Source: a virus
Lineage: Duplodnaviria; Heunggongvirae; Uroviricota; Caudoviricetes
Direction: 5' to 3' (one strand)
DNA length: 64,000 bases
Virus record (IMG/VR): IMGVR_UViG_2645727901_000008
The notes under the pieces were generated by a model. It was not told the DNA's origin. It saw only the letters and a list, made by a program, of their open reading frames with translations, and searched no databases. This document shows, in pieces, positions 431-52,910 of this stretch. A program made the translations under genes and the position numbers. Every line of letters begins with the position of its first letter. The stretch's first letter is position 1.

Positions 431-448
431 AATTTTCTAACACTTTAA
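431..448 (+). promoter_or_regulatory. C1-operator-like motif copy (aattttctaacactttaa)
   Basis: One of 9 intergenic copies of an asymmetric ~16-bp motif ATTTTCTAACA(C/T)AAA. Resembles the asymmetric P1 C1 operator class (shared TCTAA core); the assignment is inferred. Confidence 0.4.
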
Positions 449-586
449 TTTGTTATTTGCTGGTGGGCGAACAACAACCAATAAGTGACTATCAAGCCCA
501 GCAAGCGAAATGTGGCAACGCTCCACCAGCAAGGAAAATTCTAAGTTAAGTTACTCTCACAATCAATACGTTCGTTTAGTGAAATT

Positions 587-603
587 AGATTTCTAACATT
601 TTA
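587..603 (+). promoter_or_regulatory. C1-operator-like motif copy (agatttctaacatttta)
   Basis: Same motif family, read directly; no ORF >=60 aa follows it, so the target may be a small gene or RNA. Confidence 0.4.
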
Positions 604-1821
604 TTTCCCATAAAGATCTTCTACGCCCCCATTCTTCTTGTCCCATTCGTTAGCCCACACCCGGCAGGCATCAATAATTTCTTGACGACGGTCGCCCTGC
701 ATAAAGGGGATGCTTTCATGAAAACTACTTGGGATACAGGCCACGCTGAATACGGTATCAAACGCAGTCTGTTTGATAGCTTCCAACGTCTCTGGGCGCA
801 TTTTCAATTCATCGATCGGCGCATCCTTAGAGTCCATAATCCGGCGATGCAGGCGCGGGAAATCAGTCTCCAGGTACGCCATAATTTTATCTGCCAGGCA
901 TTCGTCTATATCGGTATTCCAGTCCGTTTCGAAGCCGGGCAGGCGATAGTAAAGCGGCGTTCCCCATACTGATGGGATCACATCCATCGTCAGCAGGCGG
1001 TTGGTTCTAATTTGTTGATGGTAATTAGCCGTCAACAGAGCTTCACCACGCTGACCAGTCTCCGCAACCAGACCATGCGGGTACTCATGGATATAGGCAA
1101 TAGCATCCACCCCGTCATACATGAGCGGGAATGTCTCTGGCCTTTGTCCCATACCACAAGCGCGGTTCAGATCATGACCAAGCTGTGAGCACTCTCGTTT
1201 CAGCGTTTCAATAATGTTCTGCGCTGTTGCTAACTTTTTACGCAGTGTGACGCCTTCGCCTTGATACTTAATGCATTGCTGATTCAGCTCTGTTAAACGC
1301 TCTTTTAGTTCCCGACGCTCTCTTTTCAGCGCACGGTTATCCTTCTCCGCAACATCCAGTCGTTTTGACAGACTGGCTGGATAGTCTTTTTTGTAACGAC
1401 TCAAATCGGCTTCTGCGGATTTGCGCAGTGTGTTTGCCTGTTCAAGACGCGCTTCCAGATTACCGATCTCACTACGCATATTCGCGGCAAATTGATTAAC
1501 AGCATTGCCAAGACTTTCAACTGTCGCTGATACGCCTGTGACTTGTGAAAAACGGATCAAGCCATCATTAACGGCTTGTTGATATCCCTCAAACTGATCC
1601 ACCAGCTTGTTGTAATCAACCGTCCCTTCCTCAAGTAGCTGGTTGATCTCCGCGACCAGGTTATCAGTAGTGGCAATGACGCTCTCATGTAACCGTCTGG
1701 ACAGGTCATCCCCCGGATTCCGCTTTTGAATAAGGGCGATCTGTGTCCGCAGCGTTTCAATCGCGGCTGAGATGATTTCCAGATTAGAAGTATCAGTTTG
1801 TTGACTCATTGCAGTTCCCAT
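601..1821 (-). CDS. hypothetical coiled-coil protein, operator-controlled
   Basis: ORF track 601..1893. The N-terminal half is heptad-like and K/E/L/Q-rich; no catalytic motif recognised. The track start lies upstream of a terminator hairpin (1892..1918) and an operator copy, so the in-frame ATG at 1821 (or 1809) is the likelier start. Confidence 0.5.
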   Translation of the reverse strand: MGTAMSQQTDTSNLEIISAAIETLRTQIALIQKRNPGDDLSRRLHESVIATTDNLVAEINQLLEEGTVDYNKLVDQFEGYQQAVNDGLIRFSQVTGVSATVESLGNAVNQFAANMRSEIGNLEARLEQANTLRKSAEADLSRYKKDYPASLSKRLDVAEKDNRALKRERRELKERLTELNQQCIKYQGEGVTLRKKLATAQNIIETLKRECSQLGHDLNRACGMGQRPETFPLMYDGVDAIAYIHEYPHGLVAETGQRGEALLTANYHQQIRTNRLLTMDVIPSVWGTPLYYRLPGFETDWNTDIDECLADKIMAYLETDFPRLHRRIMDSKDAPIDELKMRPETLEAIKQTAFDTVFSVACIPSSFHESIPFMQGDRRQEIIDACRVWANEWDKKNGGVEDLYGK

Positions 1822-1837
1822 TGTTTTTTGCAAGATT

Positions 1838-1855
1838 AGTTTTCTAACATATTTT
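1838..1855 (+). promoter_or_regulatory. C1-operator-like motif copy (agttttctaacatatttt)
   Basis: Motif copy 17 bp upstream of the proposed start of the 601..1821 gene. Confidence 0.45.
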
Positions 1856-1891
1856 ATTAGTATGAGAACAAGAGCGAAAGATGTGATAAAC

Positions 1892-1918
1892 AAAAAACCC
1901 GCTAATCGGCGGGTTTTT
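1892..1918. terminator. bidirectional intrinsic terminator
   Basis: Stem aacccgc/gcgggtt with a 6-nt loop, flanked by an A-run on one side and TTTTT on the other. Confidence 0.6.
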
Positions 1919-1924
1919 GAGCGG

Positions 1925-2239
1925 TTATTGTGTCATTGCCTGGTAGATAAAATACACGATGCATACCGGTACGATAGCCCATTGCAGCAATGAAAGCAGC
2001 CTCATGGCTGTCATGGGAGTAACTCCATCTACGTATTCCTTCTCTGACATTTTCCCTAACCAACTAACCGACAAAAGGGTCGAGTTCTCCCCCATTTCCA
2101 GCTCCCTGAGGGCTTCCCGGATTAAAGGCGCTGTTACCACCTTGCGGGCAGTGTTGAGCGTAATGCTCCGCGTCCTCCCGGCGTCATCGGCAAACGCCAG
2201 GTTCACATGATATTTTTTGCTCAATGTACAAACTCCCAA
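1925..2239 (-). CDS. hypothetical protein with C-terminal hydrophobic segment
   Basis: 104-aa ORF; the C-terminus LLSLLQWAIVPVCIVYFIY looks like a TM helix. Last gene of the VRR-NUC operon before the terminator. Confidence 0.4.
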   Translation of the reverse strand: MGVCTLSKKYHVNLAFADDAGRTRSITLNTARKVVTAPLIREALRELEMGENSTLLSVSWLGKMSEKEYVDGVTPMTAMRLLSLLQWAIVPVCIVYFIYQAMTQ

Positions 2240-2421
2240 TCATTGGCTTTCGCGCTTTCCGGGGTAATGCATACCTTGTCGCCGGTAACTATGTTTCGGG
2301 CTTCTAATGCCCCATCATCCATCTTTTTAAGCTCTATACAGAAAGAATGAGGCCATGAGCAGCGACGAGCAACAACGTTAGCACCAGCAGGGATAAGTTC
2401 AGCCACGTTAAGTAAACGCAA
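2221..2421 (-). CDS. hypothetical small protein
   Basis: 66-aa ORF between the VRR-NUC gene and the 104-aa gene; overlaps the next ORF as in a coupled operon. Confidence 0.35.
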   Translation of the reverse strand: MRLLNVAELIPAGANVVARRCSWPHSFCIELKKMDDGALEARNIVTGDKVCITPESAKANDWEFVH

Positions 2422-2435
2422 AACGATTTCTCCGT

Positions 2436-2882
2436 TTAATCAAGACAAACATATTCCGTGATAGCTTTTATGGCTTCATCGGCACTGCGCGCCTCAAAGC
2501 AGTAATAGCCTGCTTCCGTGAGGCGAGTCATCCAGACGAGCTGTTCGGGAGTCAGACGGTTTCTCCCGTGCTTCATCTCAATGCGCATTCCGTGATACCC
2601 ACCACGAGCAAGGTCAATAGAAAGGTCCGGATAGCCCTTCTTCTGACCTTCTGCCACCATCTTAATGGCTGTCCTTTTGCCTCTCAGGCCGCCGTTCGGT
2701 GTTGAGTGTGTGTGCTCATACACGTATCGCATGTTGCGATACAGCCAATCCAGAACGCGAACCTGTTCGTAATGTTCGTAATTCCGTTTTAATAAGTCAG
2801 GATTTCTTTCTAACTCTCTCAGTGCAGCAGCGTGCGGGGATATTTCAGAATACGCACTATGATGCCTGCGTCTTCGCATCAA
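2436..2882 (-). CDS. VRR-NUC domain nuclease-like protein
   Basis: Motif GYPDLSIDLARGGYHGMRIEMK fits the VRR-NUC / PD-(D/E)xK pattern (D...E.K). Operator copy sits directly upstream. Confidence 0.65.
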   Translation of the reverse strand: MMRRRRHHSAYSEISPHAAALRELERNPDLLKRNYEHYEQVRVLDWLYRNMRYVYEHTHSTPNGGLRGKRTAIKMVAEGQKKGYPDLSIDLARGGYHGMRIEMKHGRNRLTPEQLVWMTRLTEAGYYCFEARSADEAIKAITEYVCLD

Positions 2883-2896
2883 ATTTCTAACACAAA
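2879..2896 (+). promoter_or_regulatory. C1-operator-like motif copy (caaatttctaacacaaac)
   Basis: Motif overlaps the start codon region of the VRR-NUC gene. Confidence 0.45.
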
Positions 2897-3067
2897 CTTA
2901 CTGAATTCATGAACACGATAATAACAAGAGCGTTAGTTTTATCAAACCGAGGGGAATACTACTGAAGAGATAGGCGGATGCAACAGGTCGGACTTGTTTT
3001 TAGAGTAAATGGTGATGCGGGTCAACAAGCCGGGTAAATTGTATGTCATTTACCCAACTTGTTATTT

Positions 3068-3328
3068 TTAATGGTTTATTTTATCAGGTTCGTTAATTTC
3101 CGTAACCGCCTTGTCGATAGCAATCATCCATCCTTCATAGGATAAATCATCAACAAGTCCCACCAGCTTATCGTCAGTGTGCGGAAAATAAATCCATCCC
3201 CATTTCGAAGGGTTTCCTATATGCCGCAGGGTAAATACCCGCTTATAACGGTGGTATTCAAGGGCGTATCCCTTCCCTTGTGAGTACGCTTTTAAGTCGT
3301 CGATCGTAAACCTACGATTCTTCCGCAT
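3068..3328 (-). CDS. hypothetical small protein downstream of darB (P1 lxc/ulx region by synteny)
   Basis: 86-aa ORF, tightly packed after the preceding gene; no motif recognised. The P1 comparison is from memory only. Confidence 0.45.
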   Translation of the reverse strand: MRKNRRFTIDDLKAYSQGKGYALEYHRYKRVFTLRHIGNPSKWGWIYFPHTDDKLVGLVDDLSYEGWMIAIDKAVTEINEPDKINH

Positions 3329-3330
3329 GG

Positions 3331-3765
3331 CTACCCCACGATTCGATATTTCTCTATAGACTCGTCGTAACTTGTGTATACGTATGGCTCTGTATCATCA
3401 GCATAAGGCGCGACTTCCAGAGCATGAACGGGATTGTATACCGCGTCATTTTCCAGGCGATCGCTCGAATACAGATGCCCGGCTAAAACCGTAAGCGCCG
3501 GGCGACTCATTTTGTAGATTTCTGCCACATCACTATCTACAACTTGTCCAAATGATATGTCGCCACGCTCCAGCAATAACGTTTTAAGCGCAGGCCACCA
3601 CGGCCCATAAAGATGATAAAGCTGTGGATCTCTTTTCAGCCTTTCCGCCATGCCATCCAGATATGCATCCAGAAACGCCTCTTCACTCCTGCCATTGAGC
3701 GCCTGCGGCAAAATGTCCTCAAGGTAGGATTCCGTCGGTTTTACAGTGTCAATTAATGTCGTCAT
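3331..3765 (-). CDS. hypothetical protein co-transcribed with darB
   Basis: 144-aa ORF 36 bp downstream of darB on the same strand, with a short stem-loop (3770..3795) between them. Confidence 0.5.
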   Translation of the reverse strand: MTTLIDTVKPTESYLEDILPQALNGRSEEAFLDAYLDGMAERLKRDPQLYHLYGPWWPALKTLLLERGDISFGQVVDSDVAEIYKMSRPALTVLAGHLYSSDRLENDAVYNPVHALEVAPYADDTEPYVYTSYDESIEKYRIVG

Positions 3766-3801
3766 TCAAATTCGGCCCCGGTTGGGGCCGCTCCTTATCT
3801 G

Positions 3802-6800
3802 TTAGGCCGCATCGGCGATTATTTTACGCAATTCATCTACCGAGTAACGCGTAGATACCATCCATGCAGGACGGTCAAAGTTCACATCAGCAACCGGGTT
3901 TGCTTCAAAATTCCAGAAACGCCCGCCAATCTTCTTAATCGCGTCTTTGGCGTTCCGTATTGTCGAGGAACCAGGTTGGTCGGCAATGAGATAAACCGCA
4001 CCGACGTCCTCGCTGACACTCCACCAGCGCCCGCGAACACGCGCCTTAGCGCGAATCGGCTTATCATTAACCACAATGATATAGTCATCATTCGCCGCTT
4101 CATCAGCTCTGGCTTCAGCCACTGCCGCCTGCTCTTCTCTTTTGCTTTCAGCCTGTTCAAGCCTTTCCGCGATCTCTGATTCGGTGGCCCCGCCGTTTTT
4201 CAGCGATACATAGTCTTGCCACGTTGCTGATTTGAGCGCATCCGGCAACTCATTCACATAGTCACCGTCTTTCAACTCACGGGCGCGGCGGGTAGCCATT
4301 TCTACCAGGCGATTAACAGAAACAGCATCAGCAAAATCGTCCTTACTAATGTGTTTTTCATCAAATGCATTGATGACAGCCCCCACCTTAATCCACTGCG
4401 CTGCTGGCGAATCCAGAGGATTATCGGCCTGAACAATGGCTAATTTCGCTCCATCGACACCATTATTAGCCAGCTGCTCCAATGCCGACCAGCCATCGGC
4501 ATCGCTGAGTGATTTATATTGCTCAAACAATGCATCGCGCCAGGCCACCAGCGCAGCTCGTGTTTTCTCAATTTTCGCCGTAATTTTCGCGGCCTTCACC
4601 TGATTAAACATCCGTTCAATGTCATCAGTGTTGCTAAAGGCTTTCATCCTGCCCTGGAATAAACGGTATGCCACCACGGTCTTCCAGAAAGATTCCAGCC
4701 CTTCTCCGGACGGTTTACGGAACAGGCTAAGAATATCTTCAGAAGTAACTTTATTAAGTGAGCGACCGGACAAACCACGCCCTGCCATCCAGTTTTCAAA
4801 CTCCTGGGAAACATCATCCATCGTGGCCTGTGACCCCCATGCCTGCATTCCCTGGATGTAATCATATCCATACAATGCCTGGAGGAATCCCTCGCCGTCC
4901 ACGACATTCAGCGGGTTATCACTGGCTTGTATTTTTGCCACTTCACGCTTCAGCGCCTCATCGTTGCCATCAGGGTAAATCCACCGCTCAGGCGCTATAT
5001 CCGATGCTCGCCCGATTTTTTGACCTATTACGCCATCATAAGCCGATGACAGTGCAATCTGACCATCATCGGTGCGATAAGCCCAGTATTTAATAGCTGA
5101 ACCACCGCCCCATACTCTACTAGGCTTCCCGGCAGTGACATTCATTACCCCATTGCGAATAGCATCATAGAACTGATCGCGCGTAAGTGTTGTTGATAGC
5201 TGGTGGCATTGAACACCACGTGCAGCTGTTTCACGCGATTCTGCAACTCCCTCTTCAAAGGTTACCGATTCAATTATCAGGTTAAAGGGCAAAAATAATG
5301 CCGTCCCCGGAGAACGAGAGTAACGACTAGCCACATCCAGCCAGGATATGCGGCACGTACACCCGCCCCTTTCCGCATCAATGGCGGTAACACGAACAAT
5401 TGCTGTCGTATTGTGATTCTCATCGATGATCGCGCGATAATGGCTGCCCTTGTGCAACAAGATATTTTTCTCAGTGCGTACATACTCCTGTGGGTTCTGC
5501 AATACATCGGCATCAAGCTCCAGAACCCCGGCTTTAATCGCACGTTCCAGATCACCACGAGAACGTTTCATAACGGTGTCAGCGTCTTTAGCTCTGGTGA
5601 TCGCAAAGCGTAGCTCCCGCACACGTTTTCTGTAGTCTCGCAACTGTTCCAGAACATATTTCTGCCCGTTCCTGTTCGTCCCCGCTTTAATCAGGTCGTC
5701 AAGATTGCGCTGGTAATGCTCTACCTGCTCCATCGCGCTTTTCAGTTCTGTCTCCATCATGCCGATATCTTTCCCGGCAGCATTCGCCGCTTTCAGGTAG
5801 TTATCGAGAGCATTATTGGCTTCGCGTAGGGCTTTCAGTTTCAGACGTTCTTCACGCTCTTGCGCCTGACGACTCATGATTGCACGGCGTTCTTCCGGAT
5901 TTGCCGCCAGCATAATGGCGCGTTCATCTGCGTCATCCGCATCACCATTGGCGATCTCTGACATGTCGGAGGTCATCACCATATTGATCCAGTCCTTCTT
6001 ACGTTTCAGCGTATCCAGACGGAAGTCATCAAATGTGCCTTTGCCACAATAGTAGTGAACATTGACCTTTTCTTGTGGTGAGCCTACCCGAGCGCCGCGC
6101 CCATTACGTTGGTCGATACTGGCAGGAGTCCAGGGTAGTGTCAGATGGTGGATATCGGTTGTCCCGATGTGCAAGTTAATACCTACTTCAGCCTTCTTGT
6201 TACAGATTATGATGCGCGTGCGACCTTCGTTATAGTCGGCGGCAATACCTTCCATGCCCTCAAGGCCAGCATCATTTTTAGCTGAGAGATAATCCTCATA
6301 TTGGGCAAGTTTGCTGTAGTAGGTTTCCCATGCACCTTCTTTGTATTCACCGTTTTTATTTGGCGTAGGTTCAGTCGGCTTATTCACCTTCTTCAGCTTG
6401 ACGCCGCCAGCCTGGCTAACTGTCGTCGCATTGATAATGCCTATCTCCTGCTCCGGCATTTGCAGTGCACTGGCAATAATACGGCGCAGCTTCTGGTGCT
6501 GGGCTTTTTCATCAATGAAGACGATTTGTTTACCGTTCTTCAGACCTTCACGAAGGTTTTCGATCAGCGCGGCATACTTCGGCGGGATGGGGTGTGATAC
6601 CTGCTGCATATCAATACCGGCAGCCGCAATGGCCTTCAGTATTTCAGCTTCCAGTTCAATGCCAGCACGTATTTCAACATGCGACGGATGTTCGCTAAAG
6701 GTGGTCTTCACTACCTTGCTGGCACGCGTACTGACCAGCCCACCAGCGCCATCTTCTTCGGCCTCGTCTACATCATCTGCCACTTTACCGCCAGCTACTT

Positions 6801-9800
6801 TTGGCAGGGCATCAGCAATAGCTTTTACCTTGTCTGCAAGCTCAACGGGGAACTGGAATGTAATCGCACTGGCATACAGATCAGGATCTATAGCAACCTT
6901 ATCCATGTCGCGGATGATGGAGAAGATGAAATCATCCGGTTTTTCGTTTGTGATATGCCCGTTTTCATCGACCGTCAGCGCATCTTTACTACTTAACTCC
7001 TGTGCACGCTTACGAAGTTCTTCGTAAATGGCCTCTTGCTCTCCTGTCATCGGGATCTGCAAGGTATTCTCGACAATATCAGGGATTTTTACCGTCGCCC
7101 CGACGTCCGCAGCAGTCTTCAGAGTAGTCCAGCGATGGAAAATACCACGCAGACCATCCAGGTTCTGGAAGCCCACCAGTCCCTGCTTCTCTTCCACCTC
7201 ACCGGAAATTTTCTGAACCTGAACTGTGGCTGTTTTACCGAACACGCGAACGAAATCATCCGGCGTAACAATACCCATGCGCATCCACTCTTCCTGCGGA
7301 ATGACAGTAGACAGCATGTTGAAAGCATCAATCGGGCTGTTCACCAGCGGTGTTGCCGTCAGCATAACCACACCACGCCCGTTGTTGCGTTTCATCATGT
7401 ACGCAGCTTTTACAGCCATGTCGCGGGCCATTTTGGATACTGCCGGGTTAGGCAAATATGCCAGTTGCCCCGCTTCGCGCCCGGCGCTAAAGGAGTTGCG
7501 GTAGTTATGCCCTTCGTCGGCAATTACGCTATCGAAGTTCATATCCTCAAAGTACGGGATATTCTGCTTCTTCGTTGTACCGGTATTTGCGGCCTGGTCC
7601 TTAATCTTGTTCTTCTTCTGCGCGTCACGGTGTTTGCCAGATGCCAGGTCAAGACGCCCCATTTCCACAGCATTAAAGACCGCTTGCTGTGAGTTTTCCT
7701 CAATGGTTTCTTCTCGTAGCGGGATAGACGCGAATTGCTCTTTTGTCATGATGACCGTTCGCCAATTTGACGACGGGATCATGTTCATGCGCTGAACGAT
7801 AACGGCGCTGGCGGACTCTTTCACAACATTTCTGGTAAGAGCCTGCCCGTTACTGTCGAGGCGTGGTTCGCCATTTTCATCAAGCACCGGCGCGGTCAGA
7901 ATATTTCCGCTGTCATCACGAACTTCATCCAAACCGATAAACATCATATTGGCGAAGGCATCAGAACTGTAGAAACTCTGTGCCTCGTGATACCAGTTCT
8001 GATAAACCGCCTTCGGAACAACAATACACGTGCGTTTAGTGCGACCTGTTTCGAAGTTATACGCCTCAAGCGCAAGCGCGGTCGTGGTTTTACCCAGCCC
8101 GGTGCCAAATCCCATGATGCCGCGCCCATCTTCTGATAAGCGACGAACTTCTTCATTCTGATAAGTCAGAGGAATGCGCTTCCCACTAATCCCCTCCAGG
8201 CCAAGCGGTGCGTCAGAATGCGTAAACGGGATGAAGCCATTAAATGCGTCGTTATAGTCGCGGGCTATCTGATCAGCCTGCGGGTGAGTGCGTAACCAGT
8301 CGTTGAAGCTAATTTCCAGTTGAGCAATCTTATCCAGGTACTCGTTAGCGTTCTGCCCACGCGGTTTAATGCCGTTCAGGTAGTTTTCTAACTGGTTCAG
8401 GAAGCCGTCTTTATTGTTGGCCTTCTTGAACTCATTCCCGTTTTTGCCGTTTACGGTTCGTAGTTGATAGCCAGTAAATACCCCGTCCTTACCTTCGTAA
8501 TCGTCCGGAGATACCAGAATGCCGTCCTCAACCTTAAGGTCGGGTTCTGTATACTTAAACTCGTCATAGCCCTGCTCTGCCAGGAACTCTTTTATCAAGC
8601 GGCGATCCAGCCAGCGGGCGTTCAGATTAACGGTGACTTTATTTAGTGGCGTGAAAATGCGTTTCTCTTCGATTTTCGCCAACTGACGCTCAAAGTTCGC
8701 TTTCTGCTCACCTGTTGACGCATCACGCCAGCCCACCAGCAATGCTGTTTTGGTTGCAATATCGCCGCTGGTGGCGCGGTCCATCGGCAGCAGGCAGCCA
8801 TACCCATCAATAGCGATATCATCAAATTTCGCCAGGTATTCCAGAGCAGCATCGTCGTCTCCTGGCAGTTCGCCAGCAAACGCCTCACGAAAATCGTCCA
8901 GTGTGATTGGATTAAGTGCCACGTCACTGAAAAGGTGGGTTACAACTTGTTCCGGGCGTGTAAAGTCAATACCGGCAGCACCATCCGTTACATCAAGTCG
9001 TCCAGCAAGGAGGTCAGAAGCAGAGCCGTCCTGTTTCACGTTGCCAGTGAAAGTCATCCAGTTTTTAGCGCCAGCTTCAGCAATCCCATTCAGCTTAATC
9101 GCGTGCGGCGGACCATACTTCGCAATTTCGGCTTCCGCCAGGCGCGCGGCATCAGCAAGTACATCATCAACATTTTCCCCCAGATTACGCTTATCAAGCG
9201 CCTTGTTGATCAACTGCCCTATCAGTGCGCCGCGCATAACGCGTTCTCTGTCTTTTTCTCTCTGCTTGCCAGCAAAGCGAATCATTGCCGCTACTTCATC
9301 ACTGATAACCGATGGATAGTCGGACGCGATCGCCGATATCTGGTCCCATGACAACGCCAGAATGCCATTTGTTGACTGAAACGCGATCTGCAGATCACCA
9401 AACGTCGTAACACCATATCGATTTACATCAAGCGCGGAGGATTTGGTTGTCGCGTCCTTGACCCATTTCAGACCATCAAACTCATGCCAGATGCCGCCTA
9501 CAAGGCGTTTATCGCCCACTTTCGCGCCCTGCCATGCCTGAGTAGTTACGCCAAGCAAATCCCAATTAATGCGGCTTTCAAAGCGGCGCGATAGAGCGGT
9601 TTTCATCGACTCATTGGATACACGACCGTCCTTTTTCACCACCAGGGTATTGCGGAAGCTGGTACGCTCCATATCGCCGTAAACAAATCGCTTCCCTTCG
9701 GTTGTAAACCATTTTCCTTTGAGGAAGGTATCCCAAAGGACGTTTGCCGATTTGAGCGTTGCATCATCCGTGTCGGGGATCATCTCCAGGAAGGTTTCCG

Positions 9801-10751: not shown

Positions 10752-10792
10752 CATAGTTTGCCTACTTATTAACCCATGACCGGGAGAAAAAT

Positions 10793-11310: not shown

Positions 11311-11511
11311 TCAATTCACGATCCAATCATTACCGACTATATCAGCCGTCGATAAATCAACTTCCCGGATCTGGAGTCCATTAATACAAAACCATCCGGT
11401 AGTAGAGTAATTATCAGGCCAGGCCCATACACCAACACTCCATGCTTTACGGCGGCACACTTCAGCCTGTCCTTCCCTGATTTTTTTTACCGCCTGCATG
11501 ATGTCCATCAC
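11311..11511 (-). CDS. hypothetical small protein
   Basis: 66-aa ORF whose start overlaps the stop of the Rha-like gene; followed by the terminator. Confidence 0.3.
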   Translation of the reverse strand: MMDIMQAVKKIREGQAEVCRRKAWSVGVWAWPDNYSTTGWFCINGLQIREVDLSTADIVGNDWIVN

Positions 11512-12215
11512 TCACCTCCCCAACCGATCACCTGGAATTGCCCCATTTTGGGGTGATACCAGCGTTTTCCTCGGTGTTCAGCCTCCGACATCATCCGGTT
11601 AAAAGCATTCATGAAGGGAGATAAGGCCACGATGGAACGACGCGACAATACCCCCTCTGGAGTTAAAAACTCATGTGTATCGGTGGGGATCCGGTAAGCG
11701 TTAACCAGGTTGCGACATTTGGCTTCGGTCAGGCCGCATTTTGCCGCCAGCTGGCGGTAGCCAATGTAACCTTCCGGCATGTTGCCCTTCTTGATTTGCT
11801 CGACGGTTTCTACCACCTGGCTAACCTTTGACTCAACAACATGAAGCCGCTTTTGCTGCTGAACTGCATTTGCAGCCATTGCGGCGATCATCTCTATTTC
11901 GGTCAACGGCTGGCGTGCTTGTTCTTCCAGTTCGCGCCAGCGGTCCACCAGCCGGGCGGTGAATTCGGGAGAGAGCTGCGCGACGACGATAATGCTATCG
12001 CGCTTGCCTTGCTCGCCTTCGAAGACGTAAGCCTCAACACTACGTCGTAGTCCTAAGTTATTGATTTTTTCGAAAACCTCAATTTGAGGACGAACAATAA
12101 CGCCACCTTTGTCTAATGTCTCAATAGTGCGTTTCACATTGTCATGACGTTTTCCCACCAGCTCCGCGATCTCAATGCTGGTCATTGATGGCTTTTCGAG
12201 AATGCAGATATCCAT
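11508..12215 (-). CDS. Rha-family phage regulatory protein / antirepressor-like
   Basis: N-terminus MTSIEIAELVGKRHDNVKRTIETL matches the Rha/antirepressor N-terminal pattern. Sits in an operator - leader - small ORF - ant-like arrangement. Confidence 0.6.
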   Translation of the reverse strand: MDICILEKPSMTSIEIAELVGKRHDNVKRTIETLDKGGVIVRPQIEVFEKINNLGLRRSVEAYVFEGEQGKRDSIIVVAQLSPEFTARLVDRWRELEEQARQPLTEIEMIAAMAANAVQQQKRLHVVESKVSQVVETVEQIKKGNMPEGYIGYRQLAAKCGLTEAKCRNLVNAYRIPTDTHEFLTPEGVLSRRSIVALSPFMNAFNRMMSEAEHRGKRWYHPKMGQFQVIGWGGE

Positions 12216-12439
12216 CAGTGAGCCTCCGCAATGCCGGGATTGGTAATATTGCGATACCAGGGATTGGTGTTTGGTTGTGGGGAAGTGGAGAAACGACCAG
12301 TGAGAACGCCATACTGATCAGGGATCAGAGAACGGGCTTCTTTTTCAGTTGCGGCAATTGCGAAGTGATCGCAGTGTTTTTGCAGGGAGTGAAAACGCCA
12401 GATGAATTCTGGACGTGAGCAAGGATTGGCATTAACCAT
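12215..12439 (-). CDS. hypothetical small protein (icd-like position)
   Basis: 74-aa ORF whose stop overlaps the start of the Rha-like gene. The position resembles P1 icd upstream of ant; no sequence motif supports this. Confidence 0.3.
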   Translation of the reverse strand: MVNANPCSRPEFIWRFHSLQKHCDHFAIAATEKEARSLIPDQYGVLTGRFSTSPQPNTNPWYRNITNPGIAEAH

Positions 12440-12787
12440 AGTTACGGCCTCACTAACAGGTTTAACAACCTGCTACCCGCTGCTAAACAGGTGGCAGGAC
12501 GTGACGGGGTTAGCAGACTGGCGTTAGTGAAACCAGCAGGCCGAAGCCTCCCCATCACGCCCCACCATAATTTGGGCGTAACGCGGTTTTACGGACACAA
12601 AAATACCGCAATATCGGATATCTGCGGTTGTCCGCACTAACATTCAGGCTGCTAAACCCGGTCGCAGAATTTGCTACGACGACATGAATATAAGCCTGAA
12701 AACATGGAAGATCAACTAAAAATTTCAGCAATAGATGACTTCAGTCGATGATGCAGATCATACATTCCGATTTAGAAACGGCAAATT

Positions 12788-12805
12788 AATTTTCTAACAC
12801 AAAAT
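12788..12805 (+). promoter_or_regulatory. C1-operator-like motif copy (aattttctaacacaaaat)
   Basis: Motif at the head of the about 350-bp leader preceding the small ORF and Rha-like gene. Confidence 0.45.
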
Positions 12806-12853: not shown

Positions 12854-13816
12854 TCACCCCCTAAAGCCAGCCGGGATTGACCAATCCTCACGGTCAAATT
12901 CAGACCGATAGCCACGCTGTTTCATCAGGTCAAAGGCTTCACCAATGGTTGCACACCCCTGGGAGCCAGAATAATCCATTGAGAAATCCAGGGCACTGGA
13001 TTGTTTAGGCTTATTCACTGCGGTAGCGGCACTACGTATCCATGCAAATTTTTTTGCCAGCTTTTCAGCGGTACGATACAGAGCCTGCCGTTTTGTGTGC
13101 CCCTCGTCTGAACGACGCTTTGCAGCTCTCGCTTTTGCCGCCGCCAGGCAGTGGTTGGTCTGTTCTTCCCTGATTACTGTTTTTTTATCCAGCACCCCGT
13201 TATCCGTTTGAGAACTATCTGCTGGTGAAGCCTTTGGCTGAACCGCGCATGATCTTTCTCTTCTTTTGGCTATAGAGTGACTCTTATTTTCTATTGGCTG
13301 TTCATTTTGAACATGGGGGGACTTGTTCAATTTGAACAGGGGGTTCCCAGTTTCAAAAAAATAACGAACCTTTGAAATCAACTGCTTAACCAGTTTTGTG
13401 GCGTTGGCAAATTTGATGCCCTGCTTACCCCCTATCTCCATTGCTACATGAATGAAGTGGAGAAATTGTGTCGTAAACCGATATACGTTACACACCTGGG
13501 CATTGTTATTCGCTACCTGATGTTGCTTAACAAGCATTCCGCACTTCGTCGCTTCAGCAAATGCCCGGCGTACAGTAGAAATACTGCGTCCTGTAATCTC
13601 GGACATATCAGCATATGAGCGACGGATCATGTATTCATCGGTAGACCCTGCCAGGTTGGCGAACTCGGCAATAATGGCGCTATGTGAAGGGGAAAGAAGA
13701 CCGCTATGACGAGCAAAAAAACTCAACTGATGACCTTTGATTTTTTTGTGGTATTCAGTGTTGTTTTTATACTCAGAAGTGTTGAAAGTTACTGAAACTG
13801 AATTTAAAATATTCAT
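12854..13816 (-). CDS. HTH DNA-binding protein (RepL-like or regulator)
   Basis: 320 aa with a helix-turn-helix-like segment MSEITGRSISTVRRAFAEATKCGMLVKQ and a basic C-terminal half; function not resolved. Confidence 0.5.
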   Translation of the reverse strand: MNILNSVSVTFNTSEYKNNTEYHKKIKGHQLSFFARHSGLLSPSHSAIIAEFANLAGSTDEYMIRRSYADMSEITGRSISTVRRAFAEATKCGMLVKQHQVANNNAQVCNVYRFTTQFLHFIHVAMEIGGKQGIKFANATKLVKQLISKVRYFFETGNPLFKLNKSPHVQNEQPIENKSHSIAKRRERSCAVQPKASPADSSQTDNGVLDKKTVIREEQTNHCLAAAKARAAKRRSDEGHTKRQALYRTAEKLAKKFAWIRSAATAVNKPKQSSALDFSMDYSGSQGCATIGEAFDLMKQRGYRSEFDREDWSIPAGFRG

Positions 13817-13876: not shown

Positions 13877-13911
13877 CAAAAAGCCGCTTCTCAGCGGCTT
13901 TTGCTTTTTTT
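13877..13911. terminator. bidirectional intrinsic terminator
   Basis: Hairpin aagccgc-ttctca-gcggctt followed by ttgcttttttt, with an A-run upstream. Confidence 0.6.
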
Positions 13912-13985
13912 GGCAGTCGCTACCGGAGCAGTGACCGCGATCCTACTCAATCACATCGGACAGGATCAACAGTGTATATAAATAC

Positions 13986-14005
13986 ACTATGTTAGAAATT
14001 TAATT
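13986..14005 (-). promoter_or_regulatory. C1-operator-like motif copy (reverse orientation)
   Basis: Reverse complement reads aaatttctaacatagt; adjacent to the palindrome agtgta-tataaa-tacact. Confidence 0.4.
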
Positions 14006-14016
14006 TCATGCAGCGG

Positions 14017-44753: not shown

Positions 44754-44812
44754 TCAATAGGTTTAGTAAAATAAAATCTATTAACACTCATGTTGTTATG
44801 TGGTTTAATTTT

Positions 44813-44830
44813 AGTTTTCTAACACAAATC
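44813..44830 (+). promoter_or_regulatory. C1-operator-like motif copy (agttttctaacacaaatc)
   Basis: Motif 10 bp upstream of the ATG at 44840 of a plus-strand gene pair. Confidence 0.45.
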
Positions 44831-44839
44831 ATTAGAGTT

Positions 44840-45232
44840 ATGGCGTATCGAATCTTTGTTTCGTATAAAAATGGCGCTAAGAGCCACTCTCTGAACACAA
44901 CAAGTCGCTTTCTTGTTGAGGCGCAGTTGGCATCAATTCTTGCCGAAAGTGAGATACTCTCGCTCGCTGAACGGATCGTTATCCAGTTTTCTGGTAGAGA
45001 TATACTCAATGTCCCCGCCCTCACCCCGGCCTCCGAAGTTATGGAATCAATTAAATGGCCTGTATGCGGATGTCCTGCCAGGGTTGAAGAGCCGGTAACA
45101 GCAACGCTCTACATGCCGAAAGCAGTAAGAGATTGGCTTGCTATGGTTGGTAATGGGAAAGTCAGTGCTGGACTTCGCAAGTTAATTGAAATGGCAGATA
45201 TTCCTGAGTTAAAAAACGCATGGCGACAATGA
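44840..45232 (+). CDS. hypothetical protein (operator-controlled early gene)
   Basis: 130 aa from ATG 44840 (the track start at 44798 is an alternative codon inside the operator region). Confidence 0.45.
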   Translation: MAYRIFVSYKNGAKSHSLNTTSRFLVEAQLASILAESEILSLAERIVIQFSGRDILNVPALTPASEVMESIKWPVCGCPARVEEPVTATLYMPKAVRDWLAMVGNGKVSAGLRKLIEMADIPELKNAWRQ

Positions 45233-45248
45233 GTAAACAAGGGACAAA

Positions 45249-45707
45249 ATGAGCCACGTTAACCCATCAAAAACACAATATCGCTTAATGCTGGCGATCG
45301 CGTCAGCTATACCAACCAGCCTGAATCCCCCGGCAGGCTATCCCGCTGTTGTTGATGATTGTTTTCAGTATTACGGAGAAGACATCCTGAGCCAGTCCAA
45401 AGCGCTCAAGCAGTTATGTAAGGCAGGTATTCTTCACTGTATCGGAGATCCGGACGATTTTGTTGTTATGCTGGCGGATCGTGACTCTTTTCTACTGTCC
45501 TGGAAAGCCGGTGCGCGCGAAGCACGTTTGGGGAATGGTATTGGTTACATAGACTATAGTGATTGTCCGCTGGCATTTGCTGGTGGATATATGCATTGGC
45601 ATGAGCGAAATAGAGGCCGTCAGCGTCAGTATCGCTTGAGTGACTTTAACGTCTGTCACGGTTTCGAAGAAGCTGACAGCCAGGACATCTGGCTTCAGGA
45701 GCCTTGA
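45249..45707 (+). CDS. hypothetical protein
   Basis: 152-aa ORF with SD aaggga, 16 bp after the previous gene. Confidence 0.45.
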   Translation: MSHVNPSKTQYRLMLAIASAIPTSLNPPAGYPAVVDDCFQYYGEDILSQSKALKQLCKAGILHCIGDPDDFVVMLADRDSFLLSWKAGAREARLGNGIGYIDYSDCPLAFAGGYMHWHERNRGRQRQYRLSDFNVCHGFEEADSQDIWLQEP

Positions 45708-46334: not shown

Positions 46335-46389
46335 TTTTGGTGTTAAACATGTACCAATTTACATCCTTTTGTGTGCCTAAGTGGTGTTT

Positions 46390-47480: not shown

Positions 47481-47513
47481 TCTTCACCTCCTGGTTATCC
47501 TCCTATTGTCATC

Positions 47514-47528
47514 ACTTTGTTATTTCGT
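47514..47528 (-). promoter_or_regulatory. late-promoter-like motif (cactttgttatttcg)
   Basis: Motif 34-48 bp upstream of the PAAR gene start. Confidence 0.4.
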
Positions 47529-47559
47529 CATTCAAACGGAGAGTTAAATTTCGGAATAT

Positions 47560-47735
47560 TTTTGTATTCTCAATTCGTTCTCAAATAAATCTCACTGTCA
47601 GACCATCATTCGGTGGGTGATTAAGATATTCTCAAAATAAACTCAACAATCGCTCTTTTTATCTCGTTTGGTGTGGATTTTTGGGTGCTTCTCTTTTAAA
47701 ATTACATTTTGGTTCTCAAATGTGTCTCAGAAGTG
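47560..47735 (+). repeat. parC-like centromere repeats upstream of parM
   Basis: Repeated TTCTCAA(A/T) elements at about 47567, 47578, 47629 and 47714. Confidence 0.5.
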
Positions 47736-47745
47736 GAGCAAGAAG

Positions 47746-48702: not shown

Positions 48703-48709
48703 CGAGGTA

Positions 48710-49054
48710 ATGTCCATGTCTCAGGAACGTAAGAAAGTGATGATTTATCTTCGCCCAGAGGCTTATGCCAATGAAAAGGCGGCGAGCGAGAAGATAAAAA
48801 AACATAGCGATATGGCAAGAACCGCATTGTTGGCAGGGCTTGCGCTGGGAGAAGTCGATAGCAGGCTTCCAGGATTACTGGCTTCCCTGCTGACCGAAGA
48901 CAATAACCCGGAGCTGATCCGAAAAATGCTGGCATCCTTCCTGGAACTACCAGCTGCGGTTGAGGAGCGCCCTGCCTCCATTGAGCCAGTGAAGGAGCAA
49001 GTTGTTGCCAAAAGCGCGTCGGCGCGTAATCTTGCTGATTCTCTACCTGATTGA
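48710..49054 (+). CDS. parR: ParR-like centromere-binding adaptor
   Basis: 114-aa ORF 7 bp after parM, matching the R1 parMR order; followed by a terminator. Confidence 0.55.
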   Translation: MSMSQERKKVMIYLRPEAYANEKAASEKIKKHSDMARTALLAGLALGEVDSRLPGLLASLLTEDNNPELIRKMLASFLELPAAVEERPASIEPVKEQVVAKSASARNLADSLPD

Positions 49055-49073
49055 TGGTCAAAACTCTATTTTA

Positions 49074-49097
49074 AGGCTGCAAATTGCAGCCTTTTTT
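49074..49097 (+). terminator. intrinsic terminator after parR
   Basis: Hairpin ggctgc-aaatt-gcagcc followed by ttttttg. Confidence 0.6.
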
Positions 49098-49098
49098 G

Positions 49099-49320
49099 TT
49101 CCTTTTTGGTGTTAAAATGGCATCAAAGCGACACCAAATGGGAGTCGTTAATGTACTGGTGCATACTTGGTGCTAATTTAGTGCTATTCAGGCGCAAAAC
49201 GTGTACCAGTATCCATCGGATTTGATGTTATACTTCCGGCATTAAGAATGGTGCTATTGCTGTACCGTTGATGTGTAAATGTGGTGCTGTTTTAGTGTAA
49301 AAATAGAGCCAAAATAAAGC
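49099..49320 (+). repeat. centromere-like repeat region upstream of parA
   Basis: Dense (T)GGTGC(T) and GTACCAG-type repeats, including acttggtgctaatttagtgctatt, aatggtgctattgctgtacc and tgtggtgctgttttagtg. Confidence 0.5.
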
Positions 49321-49326
49321 CGAGGT

Positions 49327-49974
49327 ATGGACATGATTATCCTGGTAGCAAGTCAAAAGGGAGGCTGTGGCAAGTCAACCACCAGCGTCAATATTTGTGC
49401 CGAGCTGGCCCGAAAAAACAAAGATGTCGTCTTGATTGATGCTGATAAGCAGGGAACGGCAGCTCGATGGGCGTCAGACCGTAATTCGTCCGAAGTGACA
49501 CCAGTTATTCATTGCGTCCAGAAGTTTGGAAATATTCGAGAAACTCTGCTCGATCTTAACAATCGATATGAATACGTGGTTGTTGATACCGCAGGTCGTG
49601 ATAGTAAAGAGATGCGCACAGGTATAACGGCGGCGGATATTCTATTGGTTCCATTCAGGCCGTCTCAGCCAGATTTGGACACGCTGGCACACTTTGTTGA
49701 GGTGTTTGAAGAGGCTTTGGATCTGATGCCTAATCCCAATATTAAGGCGTGCGCAGTCTTAACTATGGCCCCGTCAAATCCGGTTGTGAATGAAGCAAAT
49801 GAGGCCAAAGAGTATCTGGCAGAATATCCGCAACTGAAATTGCTGAAAACCATTATTCGCGATCGCAAGGTTTACCGCGACTGCATGGCTGAAGGAAAGG
49901 GTGTTGTTGAGATGGATAACGGTAAGGCGAAAGGTGAAATTCAGATGTTAGTTAAGGAGTTGCTAAGTGATTAA
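49327..49974 (+). CDS. parA: small ParA/ParF-type partition ATPase
   Basis: Deviant Walker A (KGGCGKST) in VASQKGGCGKSTTSVN and a VVDTAGRD segment; 215 aa. Confidence 0.8.
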   Translation: MDMIILVASQKGGCGKSTTSVNICAELARKNKDVVLIDADKQGTAARWASDRNSSEVTPVIHCVQKFGNIRETLLDLNNRYEYVVVDTAGRDSKEMRTGITAADILLVPFRPSQPDLDTLAHFVEVFEEALDLMPNPNIKACAVLTMAPSNPVVNEANEAKEYLAEYPQLKLLKTIIRDRKVYRDCMAEGKGVVEMDNGKAKGEIQMLVKELLSD

Positions 49975-50251
49975 ACGTCGAGAACCAGCTAAAGCGCCTA
50001 AGGCTACTGATCCGGAACTTGAGCGAAGAATTGAAGAGTTCGCCAGCAAAGCGGATTTAATCCCGGATGAAATTACAACGGGGAAGGTGCTTGATAAAGA
50101 TGCGCCGCGCGACTTTAAATCCATACGCGTGAGCTTTAATGAATATGAGTACGGGGTGCTCGATGCGTTAAGCAAAAAGCTTAACCGCAGCAAATTGAAC
50201 CTGATTCGACATGCCATCCTCATGCTTGCTGAGTCAGAGGATGCTAAATGA
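49967..50251 (+). CDS. ParG-like small centromere-binding protein
   Basis: 94-aa ORF overlapping the parA stop; C-terminus IRVSFNEYEYGVLDALSKKLNRSKLNLIRHAI is compatible with a ribbon-helix-helix fold. Confidence 0.55.
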   Translation: MIKRREPAKAPKATDPELERRIEEFASKADLIPDEITTGKVLDKDAPRDFKSIRVSFNEYEYGVLDALSKKLNRSKLNLIRHAILMLAESEDAK

Positions 50252-50370
50252 TACCGATTTGATGCCTTATTGGCGTCTATCGTGTACCAGTGCAATAATG
50301 TGTCAAAGTGGTGCCATAATGGTGTTAATATACAGCCATATTGATATCAAATTGACACTGTATCGGCATC

Positions 50371-50396
50371 AAAAAGCCCCAGGCGGGGCTTTTTCT
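50371..50396. terminator. bidirectional intrinsic terminator
   Basis: aaaaagcccc-aggc-ggggctttttc between the parA/G locus and the convergent dam gene. Confidence 0.65.
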
Positions 50397-51300
50397 ATTT
50401 GAGCGTTGCAATGATATCGTTAGCGACTATTCGCGTGGATGCTTTGCATGACACGGACCGTCTGGCTGGCATGTGGTACAGCTTAAAACCGTTTCTTTCG
50501 TACAATTCGCGAATTTTTGGCGCGCCACTGTTTGTTATTACTATCTTTGCACCGCGCTGGTGGGCCGCCACCAACAGTGATACAAGCCGTTTTTGTTCAT
50601 CGAAAAGGAAGCTATTTCCTGAATAGCTGGTAAATCCCTCTGTATCTGGCAGCGGCTCATACGGCGGGTCACAAAAAATCACATCGTCTTTACCAGCCGC
50701 CTCGATGACACCAGCAAAGTCACCTGATACAAAGGAAGTGTTTTTGAGTACGTCATCAGCCAAAAATGCCTTCATCTCTGCATGTGGGAAGTAGGGCGCT
50801 TTGTATTTGCCATACCCCACGTTGAACTCGCCATTTTGGTTGTACCGCGTTACGCCATTAAAACAGTGACGATTAAGGTACAAAAATGCGGCAGCATGAT
50901 GTAGTTGGTCATACTTTCCTCTGTTAAATGCCTCACGCACTTCGAGGTAAGCGTCAGCGTTGTTGTAATTTTTGAAAAAACTATATGACAGCGTGACGAG
51001 CGAATGTCCTTCTCGCTGCAATGTCTGATAGAAGTTAATCAGGTCACCGTTAATATCATTAAGCAGGTTGTGGCGAAATCCTGCATTCGTAAATACGGAA
51101 CCGCCACCAACGAATGGTTCTATTAACCGCTTACCGTGTGGTAGATGCTCAAGCACTGTAGGCAATTCTGAGAATTTACCACCTACCCATTTGAATATCG
51201 GACGCTCATATTCATCCGGAGTCCGAATGGTGCGCATATAGCTAATTTCAGCCATCGTATCCTGTTTTTCTATGGCTATGCTTGCTATAGATTTACTCAT
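50395..51300 (-). CDS. dam: DNA adenine methyltransferase (Dam family)
   Basis: KWVGGK…EPFVGGGSVF…FLYLNRHCFNG…FCDPPYEP matches Dam motifs; ATG 51300 has SD aaggggg. Confidence 0.85.
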   Translation of the reverse strand: MSKSIASIAIEKQDTMAEISYMRTIRTPDEYERPIFKWVGGKFSELPTVLEHLPHGKRLIEPFVGGGSVFTNAGFRHNLLNDINGDLINFYQTLQREGHSLVTLSYSFFKNYNNADAYLEVREAFNRGKYDQLHHAAAFLYLNRHCFNGVTRYNQNGEFNVGYGKYKAPYFPHAEMKAFLADDVLKNTSFVSGDFAGVIEAAGKDDVIFCDPPYEPLPDTEGFTSYSGNSFLFDEQKRLVSLLVAAHQRGAKIVITNSGAPKIRELYERNGFKLYHMPARRSVSCKASTRIVANDIIATLK

Positions 51301-51913
51301 AGAGCACCCCCTTATTCGCTTCGAAAACTGCCTTTGCGAATCCATGTGGAGTAGCACTTCGAAAATTAGCCCTGTCAGGCCCTGGTGGCGCGGCATGGAT
51401 TCTGTTATCTGGCTTGCCTAATGATTCGTCCATTAGGGCATCAGGCATGACAAAGCCCTGGCCGCTCCAGAGGCATGTTTTTTTTGTGTAGTTATCTTCC
51501 TGACAATATGCAGTGAAGAAGTAAGGGTGAAAGATGTGATCTGGCTTACGCCAGAATGTCGATATTTTGCTGACCGGATTTTCAATCATGTACGGACAAC
51601 CGATCATCTTTGCAATGTCATAACACTGCCAGACAACCTGCATTGCTTTGAACTGGAAAACCGGATCTTTATTAGCCTTGTCCGAAAACCAGCGCGCGCC
51701 GGAAACAGCCAGGTCAGTACACGGTGGGAACCCGGCCAGAAACACGATGCGCTGCAAATTCTTACGGAGAAAAGCGTATACTTCATCGCTATCGATGATC
51801 GCACTAATACGCGTCAGAACGGCACCTGATTGCATCCGCTCGTCACTGGTCGATAAGTGCTGTGGATCGACGATAGCGGCATCGACACCGTATTCCAGCC
51901 AGGGGGCAACCAT
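51293..51913 (-). CDS. C5-cytosine-methyltransferase-like protein lacking an evident motif I
   Basis: Motif IV-like FLAGFPPCTDLAVSG and motif VI-like CPYMIENP are present. The track start at 52045 would overlap rdgC by about 88 nt; ATG 51913 has a strong SD (acggggg). No FxGxG seen in either version. Confidence 0.45.
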   Translation of the reverse strand: MVAPWLEYGVDAAIVDPQHLSTSDERMQSGAVLTRISAIIDSDEVYAFLRKNLQRIVFLAGFPPCTDLAVSGARWFSDKANKDPVFQFKAMQVVWQCYDIAKMIGCPYMIENPVSKISTFWRKPDHIFHPYFFTAYCQEDNYTKKTCLWSGQGFVMPDALMDESLGKPDNRIHAAPPGPDRANFRSATPHGFAKAVFEANKGVLYE

Positions 51914-51956
51914 TGCCCCCGTAAAATCACAAAGACTCACAACAAGCTGTCGGTTA

Positions 51957-52862
51957 TTATCGTTCTGCTTCACCGCCAATGGCCTCCACCAGCGCGTTAA
52001 ACAGTGCAGATAATTCGCCCGTAAAGAGCACGAAATCAGCATCAAATCGTTGTGCTACATCCTCCCGGTCGATATCGTCGTTCTGGTCATAGAGATCATC
52101 ACAGAATGTCAGGGCTTTGATACTCATATCATCGTTGACTCTGAACGACGCACGGTCCATCCAGTTAATTGCAACGGTCGTAGCTACTTTCCCCGCCTCA
52201 ATGTGAGACATAATCTCGTCGGACTGTAGATCAACTTTGTTGCAGCGAACGGCACCACCATTATCGAGCAGACCCTTTAATGTGGCGTCTTCACCTGCTG
52301 TAAATCCGGCAGGGAAGCCGCTTTTAAACCACTCGGTCATTGTAATTTCCAGCGGTTCGCGTGGTGTGAATGGAATGACAGGCAGGCTGCCGAGCGACTT
52401 TCGCAATAAAGCCAGCTGGTCCTCTGCCTTTTTGGCGCTGCTTGCCTCAACGAATACCAGATGGTTGCTGCGGTCGATCAGGATTTTGGCGAGTGATTTT
52501 CTCGTGAACGCGCGAGGCAAAAGTGAATGCAGGACTTCATCTTTAAGACTGTCTCTTTCCGTTTTCTTCAGCTTGCGGGCTTGCTCTTCTTCGAGTTTCA
52601 GGACTTTTTTCTGCAACTCTTCCTTGAGCACCTGCGAGGGGAGAATTTTTTCTTCTCGCTTATGCTGTATTAGCAGAAAACCCTGGTATTCATGGGTGAG
52701 GTTGTCACCAAGAACAGGTGTCCAACCGACTTTAGCTGTGTCCTGAGAACCGCAAGGAGTAAACACGAATTTGCTAAGAGCATCGGATACTTCTGCGGCA
52801 CTCCAGTTAACTTCACGTGAAAGACGATAGATGAAGATGTTTTTGAAAGCGACTGATCTCAT
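51957..52862 (-). CDS. rdgC: recombination-associated protein RdgC (P1 HrdC-like)
   Basis: …VYRLSR…FTPCGSQD…EEKILPS…[22 protein letters not shown]…[13 protein letters not shown]… is collinear with E. coli RdgC as recalled. Confidence 0.9.
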
Positions 52863-52871
52863 GTTTCACCA

Positions 52872-52910
52872 ATTGTGTTAGAAAATTCTATTCAATTATC
52901 TAACACAATT
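52872..52910. promoter_or_regulatory. palindromic pair of C1-operator-like motifs
   Basis: ccaattgtgttagaaaatt…aattatctaacacaattgg: two motif copies in inverted orientation directly upstream of the rdgC start. Confidence 0.5.

Follow-up and report, generated by a model that had tools for sequence, protein, structure and literature searches.

A dispersed asymmetric motif in a D6-like phage-plasmid is the probable operator of a diverged P1 C1-type prophage repressor

The DNA analysed here is a stretch of 64,000 nt from a tailed virus (IMG/VR record IMGVR_UViG_2645727901_000008), referred to as the window. It belongs to a D6-like phage-plasmid of the P1 family: over its first 20 kb the window shares 93.4% identity with Escherichia phage D6 (MF356679), position 8491 of which is equivalent to window position 1. 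D6 is a P1-related myovirus whose prophage is a plasmid. The window contains an ImmI-type antirepressor operon, a lytic replication gene, pmg-like genes, an rdgC-methylase operon and the start of a tRNA operon, and next to each of these lies at least one copy of a short asymmetric motif (Table 1). The window holds 10 copies in its 64 kb and D6 about 19, on both strands, and single sites have no dyad symmetry. In our view the motif is very probably the operator bound by the prophage repressor C1 of the D6 type, a protein distantly homologous to P1 C1 whose gene is on the same phage-plasmid.

A preliminary description of the window had reported the motif, which is present at every place listed there, the positions being 1-3 nt off. 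The recurrence of the 15-mer given for it, ATTTTCTAACAYAAA, stands (6 matches with at most two mismatches, 0.44 expected); the unit as written does not, since it is matched exactly at 12789-12803 and nowhere else. The 9-nt core TTTCTAACA has eight exact copies against 0.76 expected, at 434, 590, 1841, 2884, 12791, 13990 (minus strand), 44816 and 52876 (minus strand), and none of 100 dinucleotide-preserving shuffles gets to eight. The ninth copy is the variant ATCTAACA on the plus strand at 52897-52904, the second arm of an inverted pair. The conserved extent was determined from the aligned copies of the window and D6 and also from 104 contexts in relatives. The true unit is about 19 nt long, AAWTTARTTTTCTAACAYA, and is conserved from 10 bases 5′ of a TCTAACA heptamer to 2 bases 3′ of it. 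A matrix of this unit finds nine sites with scores of 21-30 and one weak site (60488-60506, score 14.6), where a first-order Markov null gives 1.4 matches per window at a score of 12 or above. The copies had been described as intergenic, and all strong sites are so when D6-annotated gene starts are used, with the site at 2876-2894 overlapping the first codon of the VRR-NUC gene. A mechanical call of open reading frames makes 91% of the window coding and over-extends two starts; 8 of the 10 cores are still non-coding.

The positions of the sites follow those of the P1 operators. P1 C1 operators and late promoters were taken from the annotations of the P1 record AF234172. The P1 genome has 22 dispersed asymmetric 17-bp C1 operators (PMC8546580), and the consensus that the preliminary description had given for them, ATTGCTCTAATAAATTT, agrees with the AF234172 operators and with PMC8546580. 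Outside the window, D6 carries a pair of copies before pdcB and further copies in front of c1 (12 nt from the ATG), lpa and a second ImmI-like operon (D6 75978), in the divergent region at ref, and in the interval from cre to orf117. Of the 31 IMG/VR loci scanned, 30 have the copy next to c1; in the remaining one, c1 starts 7 nt from the contig end. As in P1 and P7, the sites are asymmetric, number at least ten and are dispersed in both orientations, and by position they cover c1, lpa, c4-icd-ant, repL, the ban operon, dmt, ref and the pmg promoters. The likeness to the P1/P7 operators extends to the TCTAA core, the bivalent forms, the repressor family (PHROG 1678, PF27008) and the overlap of the c4 site with the -35 by 2-3 nt. 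The motif set is very probably the D6-lineage version of the known P1 C1 operator network.

There are also differences from P1. The 17-bp P1 consensus is unmatched by the window sites, and what both have in common is the TCTAA core with a few flanking positions; the flanks differ (AAWTTARTTTTCTAACAYA here, ATTGCTCTAATAAATTT in P1, about 10 of 17 positions common), and the conserved stretch reaches further 5′ here. In the bivalent operator, found at hrdC and pdcB, the two copies diverge at an offset of 15 nt; the P1 form, found at ban, has convergent copies offset by 11 nt. The orientation of the c4 site is opposite to that in P1, and D6 has one copy before c1 where P1 has several. A matrix of the P1 operators scores 18-27 on 21 P1 sites, all annotated operators included, and at most 13.3 in the window and D6, which have no P1-type sites; P1 in turn has no D6-type site above a score of 12. 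The two motif sets are mutually exclusive, and the early view of an asymmetric motif with a TCTAA core, akin to the P1 operator yet distinct from it, is upheld.

The repressor gene had been placed outside the window, and tblastn finds no c1 homologue encoded in the window. In D6, gene 1 (227-1264), about 8.3 kb to the left of the window start, is annotated as prophage repressor 'similar to P1 C1'. D6 C1 (345 amino acids) is 21% identical to P1 C1 (283 amino acids) over 240 amino acids (E 2e-8); both belong to PHROG 1678 with E below 1e-140. D6 C1 matches NCBIfam phage_rep_C1 weakly, its relatives carry Pfam PF27008 (Phage_P7_repressor_C1), and the D6-type repressor has an extra C-terminal helical region of about 100 amino acids as compared to P1 C1. 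In the closest complete plasmid, pZ1323HEC0010-2, C1 is the same as in D6 (100% identity) and the site set is that of the window; through D6 and this plasmid the replicon is assigned a C1-family repressor, its own allele presumably being of the same type. HMMER over 1.84 billion representatives gave 83 C1-family clusters (about 80 at 50% identity), the conserved part being roughly the N-terminal 245 residues, and a profile search with a word-indexed protein database gave one further C1-family protein. Profile searches for C1 in local Pfam and PDB sequences found nothing, and a scan of genome contigs revealed no C1 relatives.

The motif changes with the class of C1. With C1 alleles that share 44-100% identity with D6 C1, TTTCTAACA persists at syntenic positions. 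In Leclercia pE1_003 and a Citrobacter plasmid, whose C1 proteins are about 30% identical to D6 C1 and 49% mutually, the word is (A)TTCTAAGG; in Pantoea pPSP-26e (C1 28% identical to D6 C1) it is ACAYRYAWTTCTAAA, and P1 C1 goes with ATTGCTCTAAT. The class words are located at like places, namely downstream of cre, before c1, on both sides of pmgS and before the VRR-NUC gene, and TCTAA is common to all four types (P1, D6, Leclercia/Citrobacter and Pantoea). When the four words are tabulated against eight sequences, the table is near-diagonal, although the words were derived post hoc from the same loci and their enrichment figures are indicative at most. Conservation across related phage-plasmids had been proposed as a check, and it came out as expected: TTTCTAACA is kept with D6-like C1, and other TCTAA words occur with distant C1s. 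We treat TTCTAAGG (Leclercia, Citrobacter) and ACAYRYAWTTCTAAA (Pantoea) as candidate operator types. The most repeated word in Leclercia, GTGATCA, was also considered as an operator and rejected; it belongs to the pac and Dam-site clusters. Salmonella Typhi plasmid pK91 (NZ_CP029871, 64498-66979), a conjugative IncFIB resistance plasmid, contains a D6-like prophage remnant with hot, humD, phd-doc, dut, cre, c1 and a truncated terminase. It still has an intact C1, which shares 68% identity with that of D6, and it has kept the operator copies both at c1 and at cre.

Table 1. Motif copies, adjoining genes and related features of the window, with the corresponding P1 operators (cells are empty where nothing applies)
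Feature	Position	Strand	Score	Context	P1 counterpart
Operator copy TATGTAATTTTCTAACACT	426..444	+	21.3	Leader of minus-strand tRNA/tciA operon, 156 nt downstream of copy 582	Oban (Op72), with 582..600
Promoter-like TTGATT-17-TAGAAT	538..566	-		Between the two leader copies	
Operator copy AAATTAGATTTCTAACATT	582..600	+	25.0	Directly 3′ of pmgS stop codon (601)	Oban (Op72), with 426..444
pmgS-like coiled-coil gene	601..1809	-		Putative regulated gene	
Operator copy AGATTAGTTTTCTAACATA	1833..1851	+	25.8	Before pmgS; 23 nt upstream of pmgS-like ATG (1809, minus strand)	Close to OpmgR (Op86)
VRR-NUC (pmgM-like) gene	2436..2879	-		Heads operon reaching down to ~1925	
Operator copy GCATCAAATTTCTAACACA	2876..2894	+	21.8	Before VRR-NUC gene pmgM; overlaps VRR-NUC (pmgM-like) start, ATG 2879 or TTG 2882	Close to O26 (Op82), before pmgL-pmgM
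ImmI-type operon	11508..12693	-		C4 RNA found by Rfam	
Rha-type antirepressor	11508-12215			ImmI operon	
icd	12215-12439			ImmI operon	
C4 antisense RNA	12487-12572			ImmI operon	
a1b1 target	12641-12693			ImmI operon	
Best operator copy AAATTAATTTTCTAACACA	12783..12801	+	30.0	c4-icd-ant promoter	Oc4 (Op51); overlaps -35 as Oc4 does at P51a
repL-like lytic replication gene	12854..13816	-		Putative regulated gene	
Operator copy AAATTAAATTTCTAACATA	13988..14006	-	27.1	Between pro stop (14017) and repL ATG (13816)	OrepL (Op53), upstream of repL
Operator copy ATTTTAGTTTTCTAACACA	44808..44826	+	28.6	13 nt upstream of orf52 ATG (44840, plus strand)	None
Gene pair, D6 orf52/orf53 homologues	44840..45707	+		Putative regulated genes, without Pfam match	
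rdgC (hrdC)-cytosine methylase-dmt operon	50395..52862	-		Putative regulated genes	
Bivalent operator	52874..52907	both	24.0; 21.1	Minus copy 52874-52892 (24.0) and plus copy 52889-52907 (21.1)	Odmt (Op68), before rdgC(hrdC)-methylases
Weak variant TAATTGTTTTTATAACATA	60488..60506	+	14.6	Kept in D6 and pZ1323	mat/simB region, where P1 has Omat

The relation of the sites to promoters varies. The copy at 12783 overlaps by 2 nt a -35-like TTGCCG (12784-12779) of the c4-icd-ant promoter. The bivalent operator, with its two copies divergent at a 15-nt offset, ends 11 nt before the hrdC/rdgC ATG (52862) and includes a -10-like GATAAT (52900-52895). At the VRR-NUC gene the copy would lie at about +17 to +35 of a promoter-like TTGATA-16-TATTAT (2945-2918), and the copy at 582 is 16 nt upstream of a -35-like TTGATT (566-561). 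The copy before orf52 is also 126 nt upstream of the start of capsid gene 23 (44681, minus strand), and the weak site lies in the mat/simB divergent region, 18 nt before a simB-like ATG (60525). Scans with the sigma-70 consensus gave plausible promoters solely at c4, hrdC, pmgM and the tRNA leader and none at mat/simB or D6 c1, so the geometry of promoter and operator is tentative.

The suggestion of a diverged C1-type operator set is backed by the identity with D6, the P1-syntenic sites, the copies at c1, lpa and ref, the exclusive motif sets, and the TCTAA variants that go with other C1 classes. From the P1 precedent we infer C1 binding, repression and the monomer stoichiometry. In the lysogen, C1 would bind each asymmetric ~19-bp site, probably as a monomer. 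The identical divergent 15-nt arrangement at hrdC (window and D6) and pdcB (D6) suggests two repressor molecules in a fixed geometry, and the bivalent hrdC operator would accordingly be expected to take up two C1 molecules head-to-head. Bound C1 would silence the ImmI antirepressor operon (c4-icd-ant), the lytic replicon repL, the rdgC-methylase operon, the VRR-NUC/pmgR operon and pmgS, the orf52/53 gene pair and the tRNA-tciA operon; outside the window its targets would be the late-gene activator lpa, ref and its own gene c1. Once C1 is released, for instance by an Ant-type antirepressor, all these units would be predicted to come on jointly. The lambdoid CI/Cro system likewise has a prophage master repressor that silences lytic genes. 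In lambda, however, dimers bind a small number of clustered, dyad-symmetric operators at two promoters, whereas here about 20 asymmetric sites are scattered over separate transcription units.

Several points weigh against this interpretation. The c1 gene lies outside the window, and its allele in this replicon is deduced from relatives. The matrix and the class-specific patterns were built from the very sequences in which they were later counted. Promoter geometry is heterogeneous and comes from weak consensus scans; several sites precede a start codon by just 11-24 nt or follow the predicted -10, and a terminator-like hairpin (13879-13902) separates the site at 13988 from repL. The comparison of the window with D6 gives an uninformative footprint (89% identity inside the sites, 88% in the flanks) because the two sequences are too similar; in three diverged regions (426, 1833 and 2876) the core does stand out. 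No Lxc (Bof) homologue was found, the syntenic open reading frame at 3068-3328, after ulx, having no similarity to P1 Lxc, and a D6-like plasmid without Lxc has been described (PMC6799933). The P1 model may therefore not transfer in full.

The best surviving alternative, which we nevertheless consider improbable, is that the motif is the site of another phage regulator co-inherited with the C1 class, such as the Rha/winged-helix ImmI protein (11508-12215), a second repressor or an early/middle activator. The covariation would agree with this, as it follows the whole plasmid lineage and not strictly C1, and a Rha-family helix-turn-helix protein is encoded beside one site in the window. The sites, however, match the experimentally based C1 operator positions of P1 at at least six operons and share the TCTAA core with the proven P1 C1 operator. 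A copy stands 12 nt before c1 in every relative having that region, and the pK91 remnant keeps its copies at c1 and cre although pK91 has no annotated ant/Rha gene.

Less probable still is a promoter element. Read on the other strand, TGTTAGAAA, the motif resembles an extended -10 (TGnTATAAT), and it could alternatively be a box for a phage-directed specificity factor of RNA polymerase; the reverse complement does hold TG-n-TAGAAA, and most copies run antiparallel to the gene and precede its start codon by 11-30 nt. The hexamer TAGAAA, however, has no conserved final T and so departs from the TAnnnT of a sigma-70 extended -10, and the fixed orientation of such an element is not found either. 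Relative to their genes, the copies are parallel at repL, orf52, lpa and orf117, antiparallel at c4, pmgS, pmgM and c1, and in both orientations at hrdC and pdcB; this mixture, as in P1, speaks against a directional element, and the copies are often too near the ATG for a -10. P1 late (Lpa-dependent) promoters have a -22 box, AAGTGACTT, 4 nt before the -10 hexamer. The motif does not conform to this definition, and the P1-type late boxes differ from it in sequence and stand elsewhere in the window. Least likely of all is the site of a host factor (a nucleoid protein or global regulator) or an AT-rich intergenic word arising from composition: the intergenic DNA of the window is indeed AT-rich and the flanking positions of the motif are A/T-biased, but dinucleotide-preserving shuffles never match the observed count, AT richness leaves the invariant C residues unexplained, P1 has zero copies with the same hosts and orthologous promoters, and the motif varies by plasmid lineage inside one host family.

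If the motif is the C1 operator, as we favour, it yields the regulon of the repressor, comprising the antirepressor, the lytic replicon, recombination and methylation genes, the tRNA operon and the late activator. The picture of P1-type immunity is unchanged by the finding, and operators of its own for a C1 homologue are what a specialist would expect. What is added is the full list of sites with their regulon, the correction concerning copies 426 and 582 (below), and the table of operator types over C1 classes. Operator type allows D6-like elements to be sorted from sequence alone, and the D6 pair of repressor and operator, apparently orthogonal to that of P1, would be a second one usable for P1-based vectors or circuits. 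D6-like phage-plasmids are common in Escherichia coli, Salmonella and Shigella, and relatives in the group bear resistance genes. In PLSDB, 138 plasmids (Escherichia, Salmonella, Shigella, Klebsiella) match the right-hand 24 kb of the window, and 138-149 match the window or its repressor. D6 and D6-like plasmid prophages such as pYU39_89 are elements of the same type as the window (93% nucleotide identity, sites at matching places). Locally D6 differs: the core of the repL site is perfect in the window and TTGCTAACA in D6, and the VRR-NUC start differs. The D6 GenBank record has no annotated operators, and full-text literature searches on the motif and on operators of D6 gave no relevant result; the sites may already stand in the 2018 D6 genome paper (Gilcrease and Casjens).

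A structural model may bear on how C1 would read such sites. Foldseek with an early and poor AlphaFold2 (AF2) model of C1 (9 sequences; predicted local distance difference test, pLDDT, 70) ranked Tus entries 1-4 (E 1.5e-6, TM score ~0.3). Profile search of PDB sequences gave no sequence link between Tus and C1, and the literature search found no paper linking the C1 family to Tus. Tus is a monomer that reads a long asymmetric site, and this would fit the behaviour of C1; P1 C1 is monomeric in solution according to the older P1 literature. Tentatively, and with rather more doubt than confidence, we propose that C1-family repressors (PF27008) may be Tus-fold monomers reading the invariant TCTAA core and class-specific flanks. 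The Tus-Ter fork trap of E. coli differs in that it arrests forks, whereas C1 would repress transcription, and the likeness is predicted rather than solved. If it is true, operator type and repression specificity would be predictable from sequence across P1-like phage-plasmids, and the chromosomal terminator protein Tus and the phage C1 family would share an origin.

For the leftmost copies, at 431 and 587 in the preliminary description, control of a small gene or RNA had been considered. This has to be revised: lying 3′ of pmgS and heading no open reading frame in the window, they precede the minus-strand tRNA-tciA operon, the genes of which are just outside the window. The operon (tRNA-Asn/Thr/Ser-tciA-tciB-tRNA(CAU)) begins inside the window and continues past its left end. 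ARAGORN places the D6 genes for tRNA-Asn, Thr and Ser on the minus strand, where the GenBank record has plus (D6 6084-7850), and detects a fourth D6 tRNA with a CAU anticodon (6084-6159) that is unannotated in the record. Between D6 8337-7357 and the corresponding stretch of the P1 ban operon (leader and tRNAs) the identity is 95%. The minus-strand tRNAs together with this identity put copies 426 and 582 upstream of the tRNA-tciA operon; its counterpart is the P1 ban operon, which is controlled via the bivalent Oban (Op72). A search for Rfam RNAs, DicF-like ones included, gave none in the leader that follows the two copies or in D6 7800-9200. The two copies are direct repeats 156 nt apart and flank the promoter-like sequence at 566-538. 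The stretch 538-556 (minus strand) resembles a P1 late promoter (GAGTAACTTAACTTAGAAT, 2 mismatches) and supplies the -10 of that promoter-like sequence. A late-type box between operator copies suggests dual early and late control of the tRNA operon.

The leader also contains two copies of Chi (GCTGGTGG), at 459-466 and 523-530, which form a 10-bp inverted repeat (TTGCTGGTGG ... CCACCAGCAA). Chi is strongly over-represented in the 64-kb window as a whole (13 copies on the plus and 21 on the minus strand, about 2 expected) and is frequent in the Leclercia relative too.

At the VRR-NUC gene, D6 and pZ1323 annotate the start 54 nt further upstream, which would put the operator inside the coding region (window 2876-2960, D6 11358-11430). 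In the window the upstream frame is closed by stops, so the start must be ATG 2879 or TTG 2882, at the operator. The repL-proximal copy is abutted by a perfect 18-bp palindrome, AGTGTATATAAATACACT (13971-13988), conserved in D6; it could be the site of another protein or be tied to the control of lytic replication. A second antirepressor-like gene (357 amino acids) with a small upstream open reading frame is located at 62264-63642 on the minus strand, where D6 has its second icd/ant module. Within the window neither a C4-type RNA nor an operator copy was found for it; the D6 operator is located further upstream (D6 75978). Near gene 26 and mat, a P1-type late box with -22 box and -10 is a perfect match at 59389-59407 on the plus strand.

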